Source: Escherichia coli | GTDB taxonomy: Bacteria > Pseudomonadota > Gammaproteobacteria > Enterobacterales > Enterobacteriaceae | DNA: 64,000 nt | Strand: one strand, 5' to 3' | NCBI RefSeq assembly: GCF_050920415.1 | Contig: NZ_CP169309.1 | Shown here: positions 630 to 16,860 of the stretch, in pieces | Numbering within the stretch: position 1 is the first letter of the stretch | Layout of the letters: every line of letters starts with the position of its first letter | The notes under the pieces: model-generated | The model's database searches: none | What the model saw: only the letters and a program-made list of their open reading frames with translations | What the model was told of the DNA's origin: nothing | Made by a program: the position numbers and the translations under genes

Positions 630-3600
630 TTATTTATGCAATCGTATGTGGTTTTTAGGTGTGTTTACTCTAAGATTATCAATATCATAGACTTCTCCCC
701 CATATTGGATTTCGTCAATATGATGAATTTCAAATGTACCTCGCCCCCCAACTCTTTGTCTTGATATAGTATAAGGTGCGCGTCCACGCTTTATCAACGT
801 TTGGTTAGCTTTATTAAATTGGCTCAATAGTTCTGGACATTCACCTACAGCAGTCCAGAAAGCTGCCCTGAATTCATCAAAATTGTTAAATGACTTACTC
901 CGAAGTTTATTTGCGACCTGTTGTGGAATTGGCACTCCTAAGCTTTTCCCCGCCTGCGACAGCCATCTTCCTGTACCTGCTAACACCTCCCCCTTACCTG
1001 TTACTGTTCCCGCTTCATCCCTTGCAGTTTTCAGATACACATATATTGGTGTTAATTCCGCACCGTCAGGAAAGACAAGTATCCAGTCATTAAAATTTCG
1101 CTCCTCCGGCATTGGAGAAGGCGGCGTGGTGATATCTGTTTTTTCATCGGGTATCGGATTAACATAAATATCAGGTAGATCAACTGGTTCGACAGGAGTT
1201 CCGGTGTGTATGGGCTGCTCTGAACCTTCTGGCTTTGCAGGCGTCCAAAATATTTTTGGTCCCGAATCAGACACAGGTGAAAATTCATAACGGGAAAATT
1301 CCTTATTCCACTCCATCAATGCTACCCGAACACCTTCAAGTTCCGAACCTGCGGGTGTGTGGTATCCGTATGTTCTCAATTCACCAGCAGTATTCCGCTG
1401 AAAGAGAAAGCGCGCCCGCGTAGCTGCCGTCTCTCCAGATTGCGCTTTACGACGTAGCTCATTTTCGAGCCACTGTTCATCCCGTCCAGGAACTTTATCA
1501 CTACCTTCACCGGCAGGTATTGGATATAGTGCTGATACTAGAACACCAAGGGCTGGCACCGTTTTTGATACACTTAAAAAACCTTCTCCACCCCATGCCC
1601 CTAATGTTCCCCATACGCGAGTTAAAACTCCCGCAGACTGTTCCGCCGCTAGTGGAACCGCAACACCCGCTGACGCAACTGTCATTTCCCCCGTCAGTGA
1701 GTTCGCTCCTGAAGTTTTTTTTGCTGACTGCGCAAGTTGCTCCACTTCATCGTCATGATAGTGTGTACCATAGCCGCAACAGTCATCCTCCACTGGCTGG
1801 GCAAATAGAGCCATATCACCAAAATGTTTCGATGGCTCCATGGTCGTACCAGCATCAGTGCAGCCTTTCTCCTTCAGACAAGATTTTGCGTATACAGGAA
1901 TTACCAGTTCATCTGAATCGTCCTTGTCTTCTTCTCCACCTTCTGATTCATCCTCATCACTAGGCTCTCCGTCATTCCCGCCGCCAGCATTCCCTCTGTC
2001 ATACTGCTCGTCAGCCAGAGCGTCCATAACTGCCGGTTGTAGTGTATTTATCGGCGTCCCCGGACTGCCCCCGCCATTCAGATTTATTTTCGGTCCGACA
2101 ATATCCACACCACCAGAATGAACGACCACAAACGAGCCCCCCACCTTCAGGCTTATCCGGCTGCTGCTCTCCAGCACGATATCCCCGTCCACCTTGATCC
2201 CCAGCGCGCCACTCACCTTCTCCGCCAGGTCGCCCTTCACCTCCAGACTGTGCGTTCCCTCCACCAGACTGATATGGTTCCCCGTCGTCTTATGCTCCTG
2301 CTTCCCTTCCACCGTCACTTTACGGTCGTTTCTGACATACAGGCCGTCATCGTGACTCACGCTCACCGTCCGGTCATTCGTCACCTTCAGCGTCTGGTCA
2401 TTACGTACCGTTATGCGCCGGTCGTTCGCCACCGTGATACTCTGGTCGTGACCCCCTTCTTTTCTGGTGCCGACCTCAACCGTCTGCCCCTTCACCACCC
2501 TTATCTTCTGGTCGTTACCGATGGTCTCCGTATGGTCATGCTTCACGTCCGTCCGCCGGTCGTTAAGCACCTCCGTGTCCATGTTCTTCTGCGCGTGGAT
2601 ATACACCTGCTCACTGTCCGTCGCATCCTCGAAACGCAGTTCATTAAAGCCGCTTCCTTTATAGGTCTTCGAGCGGATGGTCATCTGCGTCCGCGTGCCC
2701 GGTAAATCCCCCGGTGAACGGTTGTCCTCATGGTATGTCCGCCCCGTCACAATGGGCTGGTCCGGGTCGCCGTTCAGAAAGTCCACTATCACTTCCTGAC
2801 CCACACGCGGTATCGCCAGATTGCCGAACCCCGGTCCCGCCCATGCCTGCGACACCCGTATCCAGCATGAACTCTCCTCCGTCATCCCGTGATAACGGTC
2901 CCAGTGAAACTTCACCCGTACCCGGCCATGTTCGTCGCAGAATATCTCCTCGCCCTTCGGCCCGGTCACAATGGCACTCTGCGGGCCGTCCACCTTCGGC
3001 TTCGGCAGCGGCGCGTGACGCCACGTCCTGTCTGCCGGTATCACCTCAAACTGATTGCTCAGTGTCGTCCCTTCACCGTGACTCCCGTGCAGCGCCTGCG
3101 GCTGTTCTCCCCGCAGTGTGCTTCCCACAACCTGCCATTCCCGGTTCAGCGTCCCTGACGGATGGCCCGTCAGCCGGAACCGCGTTCCCGGCCACAGTCG
3201 CGCCGTGTTACACACCCCGCTCGCCGTCTCCGCCCCGTTCCGCCACCCTTCCGTCTGGTAACGCGCAAAATCCTGGCCATGCTGCTCATCCTTGAAACGC
3301 CCCGGATAATCAAATATCTCGTACTGCGTTCCCTGCCCGTTCAGGCTCTCCCCGTCATGGCTGTAGTACCCCGGCCACCCCGGCGTTTTGAACGTATAAT
3401 CCTGCGTCTCCACCGACGCCACGCTTATCTGCGCACGGTAACGGAAGTCGCTGATGTACTCTGTCGTGCCTCCGGTCGTGGTATTCGGGTTAAACGCCAG
3501 CGCCCCCATTCCCGTCAGCCCCGCCACGTCATCACACACCGCCAGCTTCTGTTCCGGCCCGTCCTGACTGCAGCGTTCATAAAAGAAGATACCTTCCTCC

Positions 3601-8676: not shown

Positions 8677-9249
8677 ATGCGTGGATTACGTCCGGCATTA
8701 TCAACATTTCTCTTTTTGTTACTGATTACTGGCGGTGTTTACCCGCTGCTGACCACCGCGCTGGGGCAATGGTGGTTTCCCTGGCAGGCCAATGGTTCGT
8801 TGATTCGCGAAGGTGATACGGTGCGCGGCTCGGCATTAATCGGGCAGAATTTTACCGGCAACGGCTATTTTCATGGTCGCCCGTCGGCAACGGCAGAAAT
8901 GCCCTATAATCCACAGGCTTCTGGCGGGAGCAATCTGGCGGTTAGTAACCCGGAGCTGGATAAACAAATCGCTGCACGCGTTGCCGCATTACGGGCCGCT
9001 AACCCGGACGCCAGCACGAGCGTTCCGGTTGAACTGGTGACGGCGTCAGCAAGCGGGCTGGACAATAACATTACCCCGCAAGCGGCGGTCTGGCAGATCC
9101 CACGCGTGGCGAAAGCGCGTAATCTCAGCGTTGAACAGCTCACGCAACTGGTCGCAAAATACAGCCAACAACCGCTGGTGAAATATATCGGCCAGCCGGT
9201 CGTCAATATTGTCGAACTCAATCTGGCGCTGGATAAGCTTGATGAATAA
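8677..9249 (+). CDS. kdpC: KdpC
   Basis: [25 protein letters not shown]...; ATG 8677 preceded by GAGG; the ORF-track TTG at 8653 is an unlikely start. Confidence 0.9.
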
Positions 9250-11926
9250 CGAACCCTTACGTCCCGACCCCGATCGTCTGCTGGAACAAACTGCCGCGCC
9301 GCATCGGGGGAAGCTGAAAGTTTTTTTCGGTGCCTGTGCAGGCGTCGGGAAGACCTGGGCGATGCTGGCAGAAGCCCAGCGACTGCGGGCGCAAGGGCTG
9401 GATATTGTGGTTGGCGTGGTTGAAACTCACGGACGGAAAGATACCGCCGCAATGCTGGAAGGGCTGGCTGTTCTGCCGCTAAAACGCCAGGCGTACCGTG
9501 GGCGGCATATCAGCGAGTTTGATCTCGATGCCGCCCTCGCCCGCCGTCCGGCGCTGATCTTAATGGACGAACTGGCGCACAGTAATGCGCCAGGTTCTCG
9601 TCATCCTAAACGCTGGCAGGACATCGAAGAGCTGCTGGAAGCGGGCATTGATGTTTTCACGACCGTCAACGTTCAGCATCTGGAAAGCCTGAATGATGTG
9701 GTCAGTGGCGTCACCGGAATTCAGGTGCGGGAAACCGTGCCCGATCCCTTTTTTGATGCTGCCGACGACGTAGTGCTGGTGGACTTGCCCCCGGACGATC
9801 TGCGTCAACGGCTGAAAGAAGGCAAAGTCTATATTGCCGGGCAGGCGGAGCGCGCCATTGAACATTTTTTCCGCAAAGGCAATCTGATCGCTCTGCGAGA
9901 ACTGGCACTGCGCCGTACTGCCGATCGCGTAGATGAACAAATGCGCGCCTGGCGGGGGCATCCTGGCGAAGAGAAAGTCTGGCACACGCGCGACGCGATT
10001 CTTTTATGTATTGGGCATAACACCGGCAGTGAGAAACTGGTCCGCGCGGCGGCGCGGCTGGCATCGCGCCTTGGGAGCGTCTGGCACGCGGTGTATGTTG
10101 AAACCCCTGCCCTGAATCGCTTACCGGAGAAAAAACGTCGGGCAATTCTCAGCGCCTTACGTCTGGCGCAGGAGCTGGGCGCGGAGACGGCAACACTTTC
10201 TGATCCGACGAAAGAGAAAGCCGTAGTGCGTTATGCCCGTGAACATAATCTCGGCAAGATTATTCTCGGTCGCCCGGCCTCGCGCCGCTGGTGGCATCGG
10301 GAAACGTTTGCTGACCGACTGGCGCGCATCGCCCCCGATCTCGATCAGGTGCTGGTCGCGCTTGATGAACCACCCGCCCGCCCGCTTAATAACGCGCCGG
10401 ATAGCCGCTCTTTTAAAGACAAGTGGCGGGTACAGATTCAGGGGTGCGTGGTTGCCGCCGCGTTATGTGCCGTTATCACCTTAATTGCCATGCAGTGGCT
10501 GATGGCGTTTGATGCCGCCAACCTGGTGATGCTGTATCTGCTTGGCGTGGTGGTGGTGGCGCTATTTTATGGACGCTGGCCTTCGGTGCTTGCTACCGTC
10601 ATTAATGTGGTGAGTTTCGATCTCTTTTTTATCGCCCCACGCGGCACGCTCGCCGTCTCTGATGTGCAATATCTGCTGACCTTCGCGGTGATGTTAACCG
10701 TCGGGCTGGTGATCGGGAACCTTACTGCTGGCGTGCGTTATCAGGCGCGGGTAGCCCGTTACCGCGAACAACGCACACGGCACTTATATGAAATGTCGAA
10801 AGCTCTGGCTGTGGGCCGCAGTCCGCAGGACATCGCCGCCACCAGCGAACAATTTATTGCTTCCACGTTTCATGCCCGCAGCCAGGTGTTGTTGCCCGAT
10901 GACAACGGTAAATTGCAGCCGTTGACACATCCGCAAGGAATGACGCCGTGGGAAGATGCCATCGCGCAGTGGAGTTTTGATAAAGGCCTGCCTGCGGGCG
11001 CGGGCACCGATACGTTACCCGGTGTGCCATACCAGATTTTGCCGTTAAAAAGCGGCGAGAAAACCTACGGACTGGTGATGGTGGAACCGGGGAATCTGCG
11101 CCAGTTGATGATCCCGGAACAGCAACGCCTGCTGGAGACGTTCACGCTGTTAGTTGCCAATGCCCTGGAACGCCTGGCGCTGACCGCCAGCGAAGAACAG
11201 GCGCGGATGGCAAGCGAACGAGAACAGATCCGCAACGCCCTGCTGGCGGCGCTTTCGCATGATTTACGCACGCCGCTTACGGTGCTGTTCGGTCAGGCAG
11301 AAATCTTAACGCTCGATCTGGCAAGCGAAGGATCGCCTCACGCCCGCCAGGCCAGCGAGATTCGTCAGCATGTGCTGAACACGACCCGACTGGTGAATAA
11401 TCTACTGGATATGGCGCGAATTCAGTCCGGCGGCTTTAATTTGAAGAAAGAGTGGTTAACGCTGGAAGAAGTGGTCGGTAGCGCGCTACAAATGCTGGAA
11501 CCGGGATTATCATCGCCCATCAACCTGTCTTTGCCAGAACCGCTGACCTTAATCCACGTTGATGGGCCACTCTTTGAACGGGTGCTGATTAATCTGCTGG
11601 AGAACGCGGTGAAATACGCGGGTGCGCAGGCCGAAATTGGTATCGATGCCCACGTTGAGGGCGAAAATCTACAACTGGATGTCTGGGATAACGGCCCCGG
11701 TCTTCCACAAGGCCTGGAGCAGACGATATTCGATAAGTTTGCTCGTGGAAATAAAGAGTCGGCAGTGCCGGGCGTCGGGCTTGGGCTGGCAATTTGTCGG
11801 GCGATTGTGGATGTACACAGCGGCACCATTACCGCGTTCAACCGACCGCAAGGTGGTGCCTGTTTTCGTGTTACACTTCCCCAGCAAACAGCCCCTGAAC
11901 TTGAAGAATTTCATGAGGATATGTGA
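9242..11926 (+). CDS. kdpD: KdpD sensor histidine kinase
   Basis: [16 protein letters not shown]...; start overlaps the kdpC stop (gATGAATAAcg); HisKA motif LSHDLRTPL and four transmembrane segments visible. Confidence 0.95.
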
Positions 11927-12600
11927 CAAACGTTCTGATTGTTGAAGATGAACAGGCTATTCGTCGCTTTCTGCGCACAGCGCTGGAGGGCGATGGGATG
12001 CGCGTTTTTGAAGCCGAAACGCTGCAACGGGGGCTGCTGGAAGCGGCGACTCGTAAGCCAGATTTGATTATTCTCGATCTCGGCCTGCCAGACGGTGATG
12101 GGATTGAGTTTATCCGCGACCTGCGCCAGTGGAGCTCGGTGCCAGTAATTGTGCTTTCCGCCCGCAGCGAAGAGAGCGACAAAATCGCCGCGCTGGATGC
12201 CGGAGCGGATGATTACCTGAGTAAGCCATTTGGTATTGGCGAATTACAGGCCCGTCTGCGCGTTGCTTTACGTCGCCACTCCGCCACCACCGCGCCCGAG
12301 CCGCTGGTGAAATTTTCTGATGTTACCGTCGATTTAGCCGCCCGCGTGATTCACCGCGGTGAGGAAGAGGTGCATCTCACCCCGATTGAATTCCGCCTGC
12401 TGGCGGTGCTGCTCAACAATGCCGGAAAAGTGCTCACCCAGCGCCAGCTTCTCAACCAGGTGTGGGGACCAAACGCGGTCGAACACAGCCACTATTTGCG
12501 TATTTATATGGGACATCTGCGACAAAAACTGGAGCAAGATCCCGCCCGCCCTCGCCATTTTATTACTGAAACCGGTATTGGGTATCGGTTTATGCCATGA
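11923..12600 (+). CDS. kdpE: KdpE response regulator (OmpR family)
   Basis: GTG start overlapping the kdpD stop; [17 protein letters not shown]...; 225 aa. Confidence 0.95.
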   Translation: MTNVLIVEDEQAIRRFLRTALEGDGMRVFEAETLQRGLLEAATRKPDLIILDLGLPDGDGIEFIRDLRQWSSVPVIVLSARSEESDKIAALDAGADDYLSKPFGIGELQARLRVALRRHSATTAPEPLVKFSDVTVDLAARVIHRGEEEVHLTPIEFRLLAVLLNNAGKVLTQRQLLNQVWGPNAVEHSHYLRIYMGHLRQKLEQDPARPRHFITETGIGYRFMP

Positions 12601-12645
12601 ATTATTATTCAATAAATACGCTTAACTAATTATTAATTCATTATT

Positions 12646-12679
12646 AAACCTGCCCCGAAAATTATTATTTGGCAGGTTT
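12646..12679 (+). terminator. Putative kdp operon terminator
   Basis: aaacctgcc / ggcaggttt 9-bp stem with a long AT-rich loop; weak T tract. Confidence 0.45.
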
Positions 12680-12874
12680 AATTTCTTAATGAAAATATAA
12701 CCTACGAAATTACAACATTTAAACAACAAAACAGCATCTAATATGGCGCCACTCTTAATTAACGATTTATTATTTTGGGCGTGATCGTTTTTTGTTGATC
12801 TTCTTCACAGTTTATAGCCTTTTCATGGATAGAATAACTCTACCTTCAACTGACACAGCAAAAGGTAAAGGTAA

Positions 12875-12979
12875 ATGGAAAATAATAACCGCTTAATGCC
12901 TCATATAAGGCGGACAACCCATATCATGAAGTTTGCCCATCGTAATAGTTTTGACTTTCATTTCTTTAATGCCCGTTAG
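12875..12979 (+). CDS. speFL: SpeFL, 34-codon ornithine-sensing arrest/leader peptide of the speF operon
   Basis: ATG...TAG ORF translating MENNNRLMPHIRRTTHIMKFAHRNSFDFHFFNAR, about 300 nt upstream of speF; not in the ORF track (below 60 aa). Differs at two or three N-terminal positions from my memory of the K-12 peptide. Confidence 0.7.
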   Translation: MENNNRLMPHIRRTTHIMKFAHRNSFDFHFFNAR

Positions 12980-13289
12980 TCTTCTGACTAAAGGGCACCC
13001 CAGCGTACAGGTCTCCCTGACTTTAAGCATTACAGGTTAATACCTGTATCCCTCGGTGCTCATATACTGCTAACCCTTTTAAACTCTAAATAATTCAAGT
13101 CGCAGCACTAGCAACTTGAAGTATGACGAGTATAGCCAGTTACCGGGCTGGTCTGGGTTATTGCATCTGCAAAAAGCAAACTACTGATTTATTTATCAGC
13201 GGTGGAGTTTTGCTTTTTTTCCGGCGTGATCGATTTCTCCTTTGAGAAATTGAGGACCTGCTATTACCTGAAATAAAGAGATGAACAAA

Positions 13290-15488
13290 ATGTCAGAATT
13301 AAAAATTGCCGTTAGTCGTTCTTGCCCGGATTGTTTTTCCACTCATCGTGCATGCGTGAATATTGACGAAAGTAATTATATTGACGTTGCCGCCATTATT
13401 TTGTCGGTCAATGATGTTGAACGTGGAAAACTCGATGAAATAGACGCTACTGGCTATGGCATTCCTATTTTTATTGCAACGGAAAATGAAGAACGTGTAC
13501 CAGCAGAATATCTGCCACGTATTACTGGTGTCTTCGAGCATTGCGAATCACGGAAAGAATTTTACGGACGTCAGTTAGAAACCGCCGCCAGCCATTATGA
13601 AACGCAGCTGCGCCCGCCCTTCTTCCGCGCACTGGTCGATTATGTCAATCAGGGCAATAGCGCTTTTGACTGCCCGGGTCATCAGGGGGGTGAGTTTTTC
13701 CGTCGCCATCCGGCAGGCAATCAGTTCGTGGAATATTTTGGCGAAATGCTCTTCCGCTCCGACTTGTGTAATGCCGACGTAGCAATGGGCGATCTACTGA
13801 TTCATGAAGGTGCGCCATGCATTGCACAGCAACATGCAGCTAAAGTGTTTAATGCCGATAAAACGTACTTTGTTTTAAACGGCACCTCCTCTTCCAACAA
13901 AGTGGTTTTAAACGCCCTGCTAACACCGGGTGATCTGGTGCTGTTTGACCGCAATAACCATAAGTCTAACCACCACGGGGCCTTGCTACAGGCTGGTGCA
14001 ACACCGGTTTATCTGGAAACAGCACGTAACCCGTATGGTTTTATCGGTGGTATTGATGCGCACTGCTTCGAAGAAAGTTATCTGCGTGAACTGATTAAAG
14101 AAGTTGCACCGCAACGGGCAAAAGAGGCGCGTCCGTTCCGCCTCGCTGTGATTCAGTTAGGCACCTACGACGGTACTATTTATAACGCCCGCCAGGTGGT
14201 GGATAAAATCGGTCATCTGTGTGACTACATCCTGTTTGACTCAGCATGGGTCGGCTATGAACAGTTTATTCCGATGATGGCGGACTGTTCGCCGCTGCTA
14301 CTGGAGCTTAATGAGAACGATCCGGGTATTCTGGTTACGCAATCTGTACATAAGCAGCAGGCTGGTTTTTCCCAGACTTCACAAATTCATAAAAAAGACA
14401 GCCATATCAAAGGGCAACAGCGTTATGTCCCGCACAAACGCATGAACAACGCCTTTATGATGCACGCCTCCACCAGCCCGTTCTATCCGCTGTTTGCCGC
14501 ACTGGATATTAACGCCAAAATGCATGAAGGTGTCAGCGGTCGTAATATGTGGATGGATTGTGTGGTTAACGGTATTAATGCCCGCAAATTGATCCTCGAT
14601 AACTGTCAGCACATTCGTCCGTTCGTTCCTGAACTGGTGGATGGTAAACCCTGGCAATCGTATGAAACAGCGCAAATTGCGGTTGATCTGCGCTTCTTTA
14701 AATTTGTACCCGGTGAGCACTGGCATTCTTTTGAAGGTTACGCAGAGAATCAATACTTTGTCGATCCGTGCAAACTGTTGCTGACAACTCCTGGCATTGA
14801 TGCACGTAACGGCGAATATGAAGCATTCGGTGTACCCGCGACGATTCTTGCTAACTTCCTGCGCGAAAATGGCGTAGTGCCGGAAAAATGCGATCTTAAC
14901 TCCATCCTCTTCCTGCTGACTCCGGCAGAAGATATGGCCAAACTGCAGCAACTTGTTGCCCTGCTGGTACGCTTCGAAAAACTACTGGAAGCTGATGCGC
15001 CTCTGGCGGAAGTATTGCCTTCCATCTACAAACAGCATGAAGAGCGCTACGCCGGTTATACCCTGCGTCAGTTGTGCCAGGAAATGCATGATTTGTATGC
15101 CCGTCACAACGTGAAACAACTGCAAAAAGAGATGTTCCGTAAGGAACACTTCCCACGCGTCAGCATGAATCCACAGGAAGCCAACTATGCCTACTTACGC
15201 GGTGAAGTGGAACTGGTTCGTCTGCCGGATGCAGAAGGCCGTATCGCAGCCGAAGGTGCGCTTCCTTATCCTCCGGGTGTGCTGTGTGTTGTTCCGGGTG
15301 AAATCTGGGGTGGTGCTGTTCTGCGTTACTTCAGCGCTCTGGAAGAAGGGATCAACCTGCTGCCAGGTTTTGCACCGGAGCTGCAGGGTGTCTATATCGA
15401 AGAACATGATGGTCGTAAGCAAGTTTGGTGCTATGTCATCAAGCCTCGTGATGCGCAAAGCACCCTGTTGAAAGGGGAAAAATTATGA
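13290..15488 (+). CDS. speF: Inducible ornithine decarboxylase
   Basis: MSELKIAVS...; second in-frame ATG chosen (9-nt spacing from AAAGAG); PLP-dependent decarboxylase signature. Confidence 0.95.
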   Translation: MSELKIAVSRSCPDCFSTHRACVNIDESNYIDVAAIILSVNDVERGKLDEIDATGYGIPIFIATENEERVPAEYLPRITGVFEHCESRKEFYGRQLETAASHYETQLRPPFFRALVDYVNQGNSAFDCPGHQGGEFFRRHPAGNQFVEYFGEMLFRSDLCNADVAMGDLLIHEGAPCIAQQHAAKVFNADKTYFVLNGTSSSNKVVLNALLTPGDLVLFDRNNHKSNHHGALLQAGATPVYLETARNPYGFIGGIDAHCFEESYLRELIKEVAPQRAKEARPFRLAVIQLGTYDGTIYNARQVVDKIGHLCDYILFDSAWVGYEQFIPMMADCSPLLLELNENDPGILVTQSVHKQQAGFSQTSQIHKKDSHIKGQQRYVPHKRMNNAFMMHASTSPFYPLFAALDINAKMHEGVSGRNMWMDCVVNGINARKLILDNCQHIRPFVPELVDGKPWQSYETAQIAVDLRFFKFVPGEHWHSFEGYAENQYFVDPCKLLLTTPGIDARNGEYEAFGVPATILANFLRENGVVPEKCDLNSILFLLTPAEDMAKLQQLVALLVRFEKLLEADAPLAEVLPSIYKQHEERYAGYTLRQLCQEMHDLYARHNVKQLQKEMFRKEHFPRVSMNPQEANYAYLRGEVELVRLPDAEGRIAAEGALPYPPGVLCVVPGEIWGGAVLRYFSALEEGINLLPGFAPELQGVYIEEHDGRKQVWCYVIKPRDAQSTLLKGEKL

Positions 15489-16804
15489 GTCAGGCTAAAT
15501 CGAACAAAATGGGCGTCGTTCAGTTAACCATACTGACGATGGTCAACATGATGGGCTCCGGCATCATCATGCTGCCGACAAAGCTTGCCGAAGTTGGGAC
15601 AATCTCAATAATCTCCTGGTTGGTGACAGCCGTAGGCTCAATGGCGCTGGCATGGGCATTCGCAAAATGCGGTATGTTCAGCCGTAAATCAGGCGGTATG
15701 GGCGGTTATGCCGAGTATGCTTTCGGTAAATCCGGTAACTTTATGGCGAACTATACCTACGGCGTCTCGCTGCTGATTGCTAACGTGGCGATTGCTATTT
15801 CGGCAGTTGGTTACGGCACCGAACTGCTCGGCGCGAGTTTGTCACCAGTGCAGATTGGTCTGGCAACCATCGGAGTGCTGTGGATTTGTACCGTGGCTAA
15901 CTTTGGTGGTGCGCGCATTACCGGGCAAATCAGTAGCATTACCGTGTGGGGGGTCATTATTCCGGTGGTAGGCCTGTGCGTTATCGGCTGGTTCTGGTTT
16001 AGCCCGACACTTTACGTTGATTCCTGGAATCCGCATCATGCACCGTTCTTCAGTGCGGTAGGTTCTTCCATCGCCATGACGCTGTGGGCTTTTCTTGGTC
16101 TGGAGTCTGCGTGTGCGAATACTGATGTAGTGGAAAACCCGGAACGTAATGTGCCAATCGCGGTACTCGGCGGTACGTTAGGTGCGGCGGTGATTTATAT
16201 CGTCTCCACCAACGTGATTGCCGGGATTGTGCCCAATATGGAGCTGGCAAATTCAACGGCACCATTTGGTCTGGCCTTCGCGCAAATGTTCACACCGGAA
16301 GTGGGTAAAGTCATTATGGCGCTGATGGTGATGTCCTGCTGCGGTTCGCTACTTGGCTGGCAGTTCACCATTGCCCAGGTGTTTAAATCTTCATCTGATG
16401 AAGGCTACTTCCCTAAAATTTTCTCCCGTGTAACCAAAGTGGATGCACCGGTTCAGGGGATGTTGACCATTGTGATTATTCAGAGTGGATTGGCACTGAT
16501 GACCATTAGCCCGTCACTGAACAGCCAGTTCAACGTGCTGGTTAACCTGGCCGTGGTGACCAATATCATCCCATATATTCTGTCGATGGCGGCATTAGTC
16601 ATTATTCAGAAGGTCGCCAATGTGCCACCATCAAAAGCGAAAGTAGCAAACTTTGTTGCCTTTGTTGGTGCGATGTACAGTTTCTATGCGCTGTACTCAT
16701 CCGGGGAAGAAGCCATGCTGTACGGTTCCATCGTGACCTTCCTTGGTTGGACACTGTATGGTCTGGTATCACCACGCTTTGAACTGAAAAACAAACACGG
16801 TTAA
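15485..16804 (+). CDS. potE: Putrescine:ornithine antiporter
   Basis: 439 aa; MSQAKSNKMGVVQLTILTMVNMMGSGIIMLP; start overlaps the speF stop. Confidence 0.95.
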   Translation: MSQAKSNKMGVVQLTILTMVNMMGSGIIMLPTKLAEVGTISIISWLVTAVGSMALAWAFAKCGMFSRKSGGMGGYAEYAFGKSGNFMANYTYGVSLLIANVAIAISAVGYGTELLGASLSPVQIGLATIGVLWICTVANFGGARITGQISSITVWGVIIPVVGLCVIGWFWFSPTLYVDSWNPHHAPFFSAVGSSIAMTLWAFLGLESACANTDVVENPERNVPIAVLGGTLGAAVIYIVSTNVIAGIVPNMELANSTAPFGLAFAQMFTPEVGKVIMALMVMSCCGSLLGWQFTIAQVFKSSSDEGYFPKIFSRVTKVDAPVQGMLTIVIIQSGLALMTISPSLNSQFNVLVNLAVVTNIIPYILSMAALVIIQKVANVPPSKAKVANFVAFVGAMYSFYALYSSGEEAMLYGSIVTFLGWTLYGLVSPRFELKNKHG

Positions 16805-16821
16805 AAAAGCGAAATAAAAAA

Positions 16822-16848
16822 GGGCGATCTTCCGACCGCCCTTTTTCT
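16822..16848. terminator. Bidirectional terminator between convergent potE and pgm
   Basis: A-run, gggcgatc/gaccgccc stem, T-run. Confidence 0.6.
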
Positions 16849-16860
16849 TATTTAATGTGT

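Follow-up and report, generated by a model that had tools for sequence, protein, structure and literature searches.

An intact copy of the speFL leader, in its majority allelic form, upstream of speF-potE in Escherichia coli

The 34-codon open reading frame (ORF) found upstream of speF in the 64,000-nt stretch of Escherichia coli DNA analysed here (the window) is very probably a functional speFL gene, which encodes the arrest peptide that senses ornithine in the leader of speF-potE, in its commonest natural allelic form. In this reading ribosome stalling and ornithine binding are taken from the literature. By each sequence criterion examined, the encoded peptide classifies as a member of the SpeFL family. 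The speFL leader is already known, structurally solved and routinely annotated, and the copy in the window is intact and typical. We established the reading frame, its critical residues and codons, the hairpin at its stop codon, its complementarity to the speF ribosome-binding site (RBS), the purifying selection acting on it and the frequency of the allele. The window carries the majority allele of E. coli, found in about two-thirds of genomes, whereas K-12 carries the minority one. A search of the available literature for an experiment on the exact window allele found none.

The reading frame and its peptide

The ORF consists of an ATG, 34 sense codons and a TAG, and is translated to MENNNRLMPHIRRTTHIMKFAHRNSFDFHFFNAR, exactly the peptide quoted in the initial annotation, which had placed a 34-codon ORF upstream of speF. 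The initial annotation had also ascribed its absence from the ORF track to its size. This fits, since the ORF falls below both the 60-aa default and the 80-aa threshold: it is absent from the ORF listing at a minimum of 80 aa and appears at a minimum of 20 aa. The reverse strand of the same segment, when translated, has an internal stop. The gene order is kdpD-kdpE-speFL-speF-potE, with speFL 310 nt upstream of the speF ATG (Table 1).

Table 1. Features of the speFL-speF-potE region, in window coordinates.
Feature	Position	Strand	Basis or remark
kdpD	9209-11926		neighbour gene
kdpE	11923-12600		neighbour gene
Putative -10 hexamer TAGAAT of the speFL-speF-potE promoter	12830..12835	+	inference only
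Shine-Dalgarno-like AAGGTAAAGGT ahead of the speFL ATG	12862..12872	+	read from sequence; K-12 equivalent GGAAAGG
speFL, 34 codons and TAG, peptide MENNNRLMPHIRRTTHIMKFAHRNSFDFHFFNAR	12875..12979	+	translation, Pfam, PDB match, annotation, dN/dS
HIRRTTH ornithine-recognition motif, codons 10-16	12902..12922	+	sequence; motif role from 10.1101/604074
C-rich, G-poor stretch, compatible with a Rho-loading (rut) region	12933..13127	+	composition only, C/G 1.4-2.3
Long-range helix, 5' arm, speFL codons 23-32	12942..12968	+	minimum-energy fold
Hairpin enclosing the speFL stop (TAG 12977-12979), proposed RNA polymerase pause hairpin	12970..12997	+	predicted fold; pausing from 10.1101/604074
Small spacer hairpin ACAGGT-TAAT-ACCTGT	13032..13047	+	predicted
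Short-form ERIC/IRU, 52 nt, between speFL and speF; not in the K-12 haplotype	13083..13134	+	alignment to full ERIC copy
Long-range helix, 3' arm: speF Shine-Dalgarno AAAGAG, ATG 13290 and first codons	13274..13309	+	minimum-energy fold
speF, inducible ornithine decarboxylase, regulated gene, intact	13290..15488	+	ORF listing, annotation of identical genome
potE, putrescine-ornithine antiporter, operon partner, intact	15485..16804	+	ORF listing, annotation of identical genome
pgm		-	neighbour gene

Strain MFDS1022581 matches the window with 100% identity over 801 nt spanning the ORF, which in that strain carries the annotation speFL, 'leader peptide SpeFL', WP_001312672.1. The same accession is the annotated speFL product of O157:H7, 536 and 98889. 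The alignment with K-12 speFL that the initial annotation had proposed as a check was carried out, and the two frames are in register, related and in the same place relative to speF. K-12 MG1655 speFL (b4803, YP_010051176.1) encodes MENNSRTMPHIRRTTHIMKFAHRNSFDFHFFNAR, which is identical to the window peptide at 32 of the 34 residues. The sole differences are S5N and T7L (Ser5 and Thr7 in K-12, Asn5 and Leu7 in the window), exactly the positions at which a few N-terminal differences had been suspected. Pro9 and HIRRTTH (residues 10-16) as well as residues 14-34 are identical to K-12, in agreement with what the initial annotation said of the motif and the C-terminal arrest region. The published account of ornithine-dependent stalling that relieves Rho-dependent termination, as given in the initial annotation, agrees with the primary papers (10.1101/604074, PMC6386406).

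Against the SpeFL chain of PDB entries 6TBV and 6TC3, which has the K-12 sequence, the window peptide matches at 32/34 residues with E = 1.7e-18. The Pfam family PF10940 (SpeFL, formerly DUF2618) is hit by the window peptide at 27.9 bits (cut-off 25, E = 2.1e-6) and by the K-12 peptide at 23.8 bits, which is under the 25-bit cut-off; of the two, the window variant is thus nearer to the family consensus. No NCBIfam model matches either peptide.

Toeprinting and cryo-EM were performed with the K-12 peptide, and the residues that matter for arrest are known from that work (10.1101/604074). The sensor domain (residues 1-13) forms a hairpin; Pro9, Arg12 and Arg13 line the ornithine pocket, and Glu2 and Asn3 contact uL4 and 23S rRNA. 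In the HIRRxxH motif (residues 10-16) arrest is abolished by alanine at His10, Ile11 or His16, and also by changing Arg12 and Arg13 to alanine or lysine. Stalling is lost when residues 1-7 are deleted, and no contact is described for residue 5 or 7. The effector domain (residues 14-34) is built on Phe20, 26, 28, 30 and 31, and arrest takes place at the stop codon. Further K-12 features are the rare arginine codons 12-13, a pause hairpin over the 3' end of speFL and an overlapping rut site (10.1101/604074).

The window peptide has Glu2, Asn3, Pro9, His10, Ile11, Arg12, Arg13, His16, the five phenylalanines (Phe20/26/28/30/31) and Arg34. Its N-terminal segment MENNNRLM is full length, with Glu2 and Asn3 kept. 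Codons 12-13 are the rare arginine codons AGG (12908-12910) and CGG (12911-12913), and the last sense codon CGT (Arg34) is joined to TAG at 12974-12979, with the stop (12977-12979) straight after residue 34.

With twelve ORFs of 20 aa or more overlapping positions 12620-13280, a 34-codon ORF is unremarkable alone, and the evidence that this one is real is comparative. The PDB match, the PF10940 score, the conserved place upstream of speF and the third-position bias described below are together far beyond chance. For the comparison between species we searched one genome per species with a back-translated PHIRRTTHIM pattern. This gave 72 loci in Enterobacteriaceae, 71 of them with a 34-codon ORF. 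The scan requires the PHIRRTTHIM core, so that codons 9-18 are conserved by construction and variability is judged from the remaining 24 codons. speFL was found upstream of speF in 65 of the 73 loci examined in which speF was identified. Codon 12 is AGG in 65/71 species, codon 13 is CGG or CGA in 66/71, and the stop codon is TAG in 60/71 and TAA in 11/71.

Between the window and K-12, 14 of the 105 nucleotides of the ORF differ, 10 of them in synonymous codons. Eleven of the 14 differences are third-position changes (P = 7e-4 if all codon positions were hit equally). The Nei-Gojobori estimates for this pair are dS = 1.15 and dN = 0.041, with a dN/dS of 0.04, and across species dN/dS is 0.06 when the pattern-fixed codons are excluded. 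Judged from these substitution patterns, the speFL peptide is under strong purifying selection in its own frame.

Purifying selection on this frame rules out that the ORF arose by chance and goes untranslated while the real feature is an antisense ORF or the small CDS that RefSeq places at 12765-12896 ('TonB-dependent receptor' or 'hypothetical protein'); we give such readings almost no probability. Small ORFs are indeed frequent in this AT-rich spacer, as the 12 ORFs counted above illustrate, and RefSeq puts a CDS of 43-44 aa over the speFL start in many genomes. Against this, most differences from K-12 lie at third positions when read in the speFL frame, 71 species retain the 34-aa ORF, and the Salmonella orthologue is translated according to reporter fusions (PMC6386406). 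The RefSeq mini-CDS itself has an ATT start and extends over the promoter region; its product names are inconsistent, and the K-12 annotation lacks it.

Variation at positions 5 and 7 and allele frequency

Positions 5 and 7, at which the window and K-12 differ, are the most variable positions in the 71 Enterobacteriaceae species-level genomes. Position 5 is Asn in 52/71 species and Ser in 19/71. Position 7 is the most variable site of all, with Leu in 34 species, Thr in 12, Met in 9, Ala in 5, Ile in 4, Val in 3, Ser in 2 and Phe in 2. The commonest N-terminus is MENNNRLM, as in the window (30/71), followed by the MENNSRTM of K-12 (12/71), which is found in Citrobacter, Phytobacter, Pluralibacter and others. 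A HMMER search of 1.84 billion representative sequences gave the same picture: in nearly all relatives the N-terminus reads MENNNR and then L, F, A or K. Residues 1-7 matter as a whole, their deletion abolishing stalling, though residues 5 and 7 vary; the natural variation at these two positions argues that their side chains are tolerant of substitution.

The frequency of the alleles in E. coli was determined by blastn of the 105-nt ORF against 5,426 complete genomes, 5,043 of which have speFL. The best match to the window ORF was at least 99% identical in 3,070 genomes, 95-99% in 265, 90-95% in 7 and 80-90% in 1,701. The 80-90% band is the K-12 type, K-12 itself being 86.7% identical to the window ORF. 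The window-type allele is thus present in approximately 3,340 of the 5,043 speFL-bearing genomes (~66%), and the K-12 type in approximately 1,700 (~34%). An independent count by megablast with the K-12 leader gave 1,710 genomes. In an exact-sequence cluster look-up the window and K-12 peptides were each found on at least 1000 contigs, and the window peptide also occurs, named SpeFL, in Shigella sonnei. The speFL genes of O157:H7, 536 and 98889 are 1-2 synonymous bases apart from that of the window, including CGC for CGT at codon 34.

The initial annotation had described the window peptide as carrying N-terminal substitutions. The differences are real, and their direction has to be reversed, as Asn5/Leu7 is the majority form in E. 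coli and K-12 is the unusual one. The K-12 reference is not representative in this respect, most E. coli and Enterobacteriaceae having Asn5 and a hydrophobic residue 7, and when speFL integrity is assessed in other genomes, substitutions at positions 5 and 7 can be regarded as tolerated. A search of the available literature for a population-level description of speFL alleles found none; PMC11190716 and PMC7815308 mention speFL only in passing.

Natural disruptions of the leader were also seen. In CFT073 an in-frame deletion of 63 nt removes speFL codons 4-24, including the sensor domain, and no speFL is annotated there. Some K-12-type genomes carry an IS1 in the leader.

Leader RNA, haplotypes and rival explanations

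A putative transcription start is predicted near 12842: the TAGAAT hexamer is suitably spaced for a start like the one mapped in Salmonella, 31 nt ahead of the orf34 AUG (PMC6386406). The hexamer, like the segment GGATAGAATA, is invariant in 6/6 E. coli haplotype representatives. A scan for consensus promoters and terminators did not flag a speFL promoter, for want of a good -35; the only site it returned was a terminator-like one on the minus strand, formed by the palindrome of the ERIC block.

The hairpin that encloses the speFL stop codon has a predicted energy of -16.4 kcal/mol (z -3.9), and its K-12 equivalent one of -15.2 kcal/mol (z -3.4). When sequences were folded one by one, a comparable hairpin was predicted in ~53 of 61 distinct species sequences, the exceptions being mainly Cedecea and Atlantibacter. 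MAFFT followed by RNAalifold over the hairpin region returned an empty consensus. We do not count this against the hairpin, because small indels in the loop shift the 3' arms relative to one another. From the second half of speFL onwards, as far as about 13127, C is more frequent than G, a composition compatible with Rho loading. The small spacer hairpin has a K-12 counterpart, ACAGGC-ATAT-GCCTGT, with a compensatory change from U-A to C-G at the closing pair.

The minimum-energy fold of the putative leader (12842-13310) is -132.2 kcal/mol, with z -5.1. It contains a long-range helix in which the 3' part of speFL pairs with the RBS and first codons of speF. This helix has 26 predicted pairs in the window versus 13 in K-12, and the predicted duplex energy from arm to arm is -17.6 versus -8.9 kcal/mol. 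The equivalent helix of Salmonella was validated by compensatory mutations (PMC6386406). A search of Rfam over 12550-13350 gave nothing at the gathering score, the matches to isrH, STnc370 and ncr1175 being far below threshold. No Rfam family is expected, since the leader is peptide-coding, and the isrH match, which overlaps the ERIC block, is probably repeat-derived.

Divergence between the window and K-12 is concentrated in the regulatory region. Identity between them is 59-88% across 12600-13900, versus about 92-99% in kdpD/E, the rest of speF, potE and pgm. Their speFL genes are 14 nt apart, and each is 9-13 nt from those of Citrobacter, Salmonella or E. albertii. The speFL-speF spacer measures 310 nt in the window, 257 in K-12, 253-259 in most Enterobacteriaceae, 307 in E. 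albertii, 304 in E69 and ~378 in Salmonella. Import of the K-12 S5/T7 allele from Citrobacter, which shares MENNSRT, was considered and is not supported by the DNA identities: the 5' end of K-12 speF is 85-87% identical to Escherichia alleles versus 78% to Citrobacter.

The 52-nt block in the window spacer consists of two inverted ERIC ends joined together, with a core of about 74 nt missing. In alignment it matches both ends, left (ACTCTAAATAATTCGAGTTGCAG) and right (CGCAGCACATGCAACTTGAAGTATGACGAGTATA), of a full copy at pgk-fbaA, which is 125 nt long and contains the ERIC2 primer sequence. The block, first taken as 51 nt, had been assigned to the 'boxC' repeat; this was dropped, as longer copies carry the ERIC2 primer sequence. 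The same short form is present at yafP-prfH. The median E. coli genome has ERIC elements at 5 places, and all sampled copies are intergenic. The corresponding site of the spacer is occupied by a diverged insert in E. albertii and E69 and is empty in K-12 and C. braakii. From the shared insert site we infer that the ERIC insertion predates the split of E. coli and E. albertii and that the K-12-type leader comes from a lineage without it. Two haplotypes can be described in this way. The window type has N5/L7, the short ERIC in the 5'UTR and a strong predicted anti-RBS helix, an architecture common to E. albertii; the K-12 type combines S5/T7 with an unoccupied ERIC site and a predicted helix that is weaker.

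Stalling, ornithine binding, Rho dependence and the transcription start are carried over to the window allele from the literature, and by homology with K-12 and Salmonella the leader would operate as follows. Transcription would begin ~30 nt upstream of speFL, and RNA polymerase would pause at the hairpin around the speFL stop codon. The ribosome would be slowed at the rare AGG-CGG codons 12-13, and the nascent N-terminal hairpin, with Pro9 and the HIRRTTH loop, would trap a single molecule of L-ornithine in the exit tunnel, against 23S rRNA. Once all 34 residues have been made, the Phe-rich C-terminal domain would compact and block RF1 at the UAG. The stalled ribosome and those queued behind it would cover the C-rich Rho-loading region, Rho termination would not occur, and speF-potE would be transcribed. 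A ribosome on the 3' third of speFL would also open the helix that sequesters the speF RBS. When ornithine is missing, the ribosome would be released, the rut site exposed, and Rho would terminate transcription shortly after speFL.

One alternative to ornithine as the main signal is arginine supply. In the model of Ben-Zvi et al. the speed of the ribosome at AGG-CGG decides between two alternative structures of the leader and determines whether the speF mRNA is degraded by RNase G. The model is favoured by the presence of AGG-CGG at codons 12-13 and their strong conservation across species, by the highly structured nature of the whole leader (z -5.1) and by the Salmonella study, which describes repression by arginine acting through these codons and RNase G (PMC6386406). 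The same study reports positive regulation by ornithine, however, and the K-12 work shows direct and highly selective ornithine capture with blockage of RF1 (10.1101/604074). In addition, the spacer that holds the Salmonella 'ring' varies in length (257, 310 or about 378 nt), so that an RNase G-sensitive structure need not be conserved. That arginine is the main signal is possible and, on this evidence, rather doubtful. Control by arginine and RNase G may be an additional layer more than an exclusive rival to ornithine sensing, and may apply to the window as AGG-CGG is conserved.

Another alternative concerns the two haplotypes: Asn5/Leu7 together with the window-type leader (short ERIC, stronger helix) might give a set-point unlike that of K-12 in ornithine sensitivity, basal expression or mRNA stability. 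Residues 1-7 make up half of the sensor hairpin and their deletion abolishes stalling (10.1101/604074), the haplotypes diverge across exactly the regulatory region (59-88% identity vs about 92-99% in the flanks), their spacers differ by the 52-nt ERIC, and the predicted helix of 26 bp (-17.6 kcal/mol) compares with 13 bp (-8.9 kcal/mol) in K-12. However, species differ freely at positions 5 and 7, whereas all residues with described contacts are invariant, and no contact is described for residue 5 or 7 (10.1101/604074). Salmonella orf34 is ornithine-responsive and its sampled subspecies carry N5/F7, and the fold differences are predictions only. We regard a distinct set-point as unlikely, and likewise think it improbable that the two ancient or introgressed E. 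coli haplotypes of the speFL-speF regulatory region are functionally different regulatory alleles. If they did set different thresholds for ornithine- and acid-induced putrescine production, the regulation of speF would be known from a minority allele. The regulatory dimorphism, the ERIC in the 5'UTR, the helix and the speFL deletions may be of interest for work on polyamines and acid stress; none of them is surprising in kind. The preferred reading remains an ornithine-sensing leader of the established type.

Comparison with known leader peptides

The closest known system is K-12 SpeFL (b4803; 6TBV, 6TC3) described by Herrero del Valle et al. (10.1101/604074), for which ornithine-dependent arrest, Rho dependence and induction of speF were demonstrated. 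It has the same locus, gene order and length as the window copy, and shares with it HIRRTTH, Pro9, the Phe-rich effector domain, AGG-CGG, the UAG stop and the stop-codon hairpin. It differs in having Ser5/Thr7 and in 14 of the 105 nt of speFL (dS about 1.1). The upstream promoter region of K-12 is only about 60-65% identical to that of the window, its spacer is 257 nt instead of 310 nt owing to the 52-nt short ERIC in the window, and the predicted speFL:RBS helix of the window is about twice as strong.

In Salmonella Typhimurium the corresponding leader is orf34 (Ben-Zvi et al. 2019, PMC6386406), which like the window has a 34-codon ORF upstream of speF with AGG-CGG. Its translation was demonstrated with reporter fusions, it is ornithine-responsive, and Rho-dependent termination was mapped ~20 nt past its stop (PMC6386406). 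The 3' part of orf34 pairs with the speF RBS, as predicted in the window. The two Salmonella subspecies sampled have Asn5 like the window, but Phe7 and Met19. The spacer is longer (~378 nt), and the stop codon of S. Typhimurium is given as UGA (PMC6386406).

TnaC, the tryptophan-sensing leader peptide of tnaCAB, shares the logic of ligand sensing in the exit tunnel, a release factor blocked at the stop codon and a rut site masked by the stalled ribosome, so that Rho does not terminate (10.1101/604074). It differs in its unrelated sequence, its ligand and its pocket, and in acting on RF2 at a UGA, and it is not a homologue of SpeFL.

Two haplotypes of the speF regulatory region

In E. coli, the kdpE-speF intergenic region together with the 5' end of speF exists as two deeply diverged haplotypes. 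Between positions 12600 and 13900 the window is 59-88% identical to the K-12 MG1655 locus (L002), as compared to approximately 92-99% in the flanks, and the dS of speFL between the two haplotypes is approximately 1.1. The window type accounts for about 66% of the complete genomes that bear speFL, and the K-12 type for about 34%. The K-12-type haplotype may have originated by introgression or by ancient polymorphism.

Part of speFL is predicted to pair with the start region of speF in a helix sequestering the speF ribosome-binding site. In the window haplotype this predicted helix has about double the strength (26 pairs, -17.6 kcal/mol) that it has in K-12 (13 pairs, -8.9 kcal/mol), where it is weaker because synonymous changes in speFL codons 23-31 create mismatches.

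The speF 5'UTR of the window also holds a short form of the ERIC/IRU repeat, a dispersed intergenic family with a full copy of about 125 nt. The short copy is carried by every non-K-12 E. coli haplotype examined, and a diverged version is found in E. albertii at the identical site. In the leader comparison this site was empty in K-12 and in Citrobacter braakii. In E. coli, the ERIC family as a whole is found at 5 places per genome (median).

Features of the kdpE-pgm region in the window
Feature	Coordinates	Strand	Remarks
Stem CCTGCC...GGCAGG, then TTTAATTT	12651-12686	+	just 3' of kdpE
RefSeq mini-CDS, 43-44 aa	12765-12896	+	named 'TonB-dependent receptor' or 'hypothetical protein' in RefSeq genomes
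speFL	12875-12979	+	34-codon leader ORF
Predicted helix, paired segments	12942-12968 with 13274-13309		speF ribosome-binding site
Short-form ERIC/IRU repeat, 52 nt	13083-13134		within speF 5'UTR; both inverted ends kept, core deleted
potE-pgm junction	16805-16860		pgm directly after potE

Flanking loci

K-12 carries approximately 1.7 kb extra between potE and pgm (L002 2200-3946), comprising ybfP and the ybfG and ybfI pseudogenes; within this segment the 3' end of kdpE is duplicated over 145 nt at 90% identity. The stem following kdpE in the window looks like the kdp operon terminator; an Rfam STnc370 match overlapping it is weak and sub-threshold (26.6 bits; gathering score 54).

Disrupted, missing and misplaced leaders

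A blastn census of the 105-nt ORF against 5,426 complete E. coli genomes gave no speFL match in 383, and in 23 of the 5,043 matching genomes less than 80% of the ORF was covered. In CFT073 (locus L006 from NC_004431.1, approximately 2995-3040 of that locus) an in-frame 63-nt deletion has removed codons 4-24, leaving MENSFDFHFFNAR; speFL is unannotated there, and speF-potE is intact. Some E. coli with K-12-type leaders have IS1 inside the kdpE-speF leader region (NZ_AP022177.1 and NZ_CP053787.1), the leader match being split into two pieces approximately 0.8 kb apart with an annotated IS1 transposase in between.

Enterobacterial speFL was also present in two assemblies labelled as non-enterobacterial, a 'Collinsella sp.' MAG, identical to K-12 speFL across the complete 105-nt ORF, and 'Chryseobacterium sp. 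18061'. Both cases are probably due to contaminating contigs or to mislabelling.

Annotation of speFL

The RefSeq mini-CDS has an ATT start and crosses the speFL promoter region; its frame differs from that of speFL, whose start it overlaps. No counterpart is annotated in K-12, and the mini-CDS looks like an annotation artefact. With Pfam PF10940 (gathering cut-off 25) the window allele passes at 27.9 bits, whereas the experimentally characterised K-12 SpeFL scores 23.8 bits; the reference member would therefore escape Pfam-based annotation.
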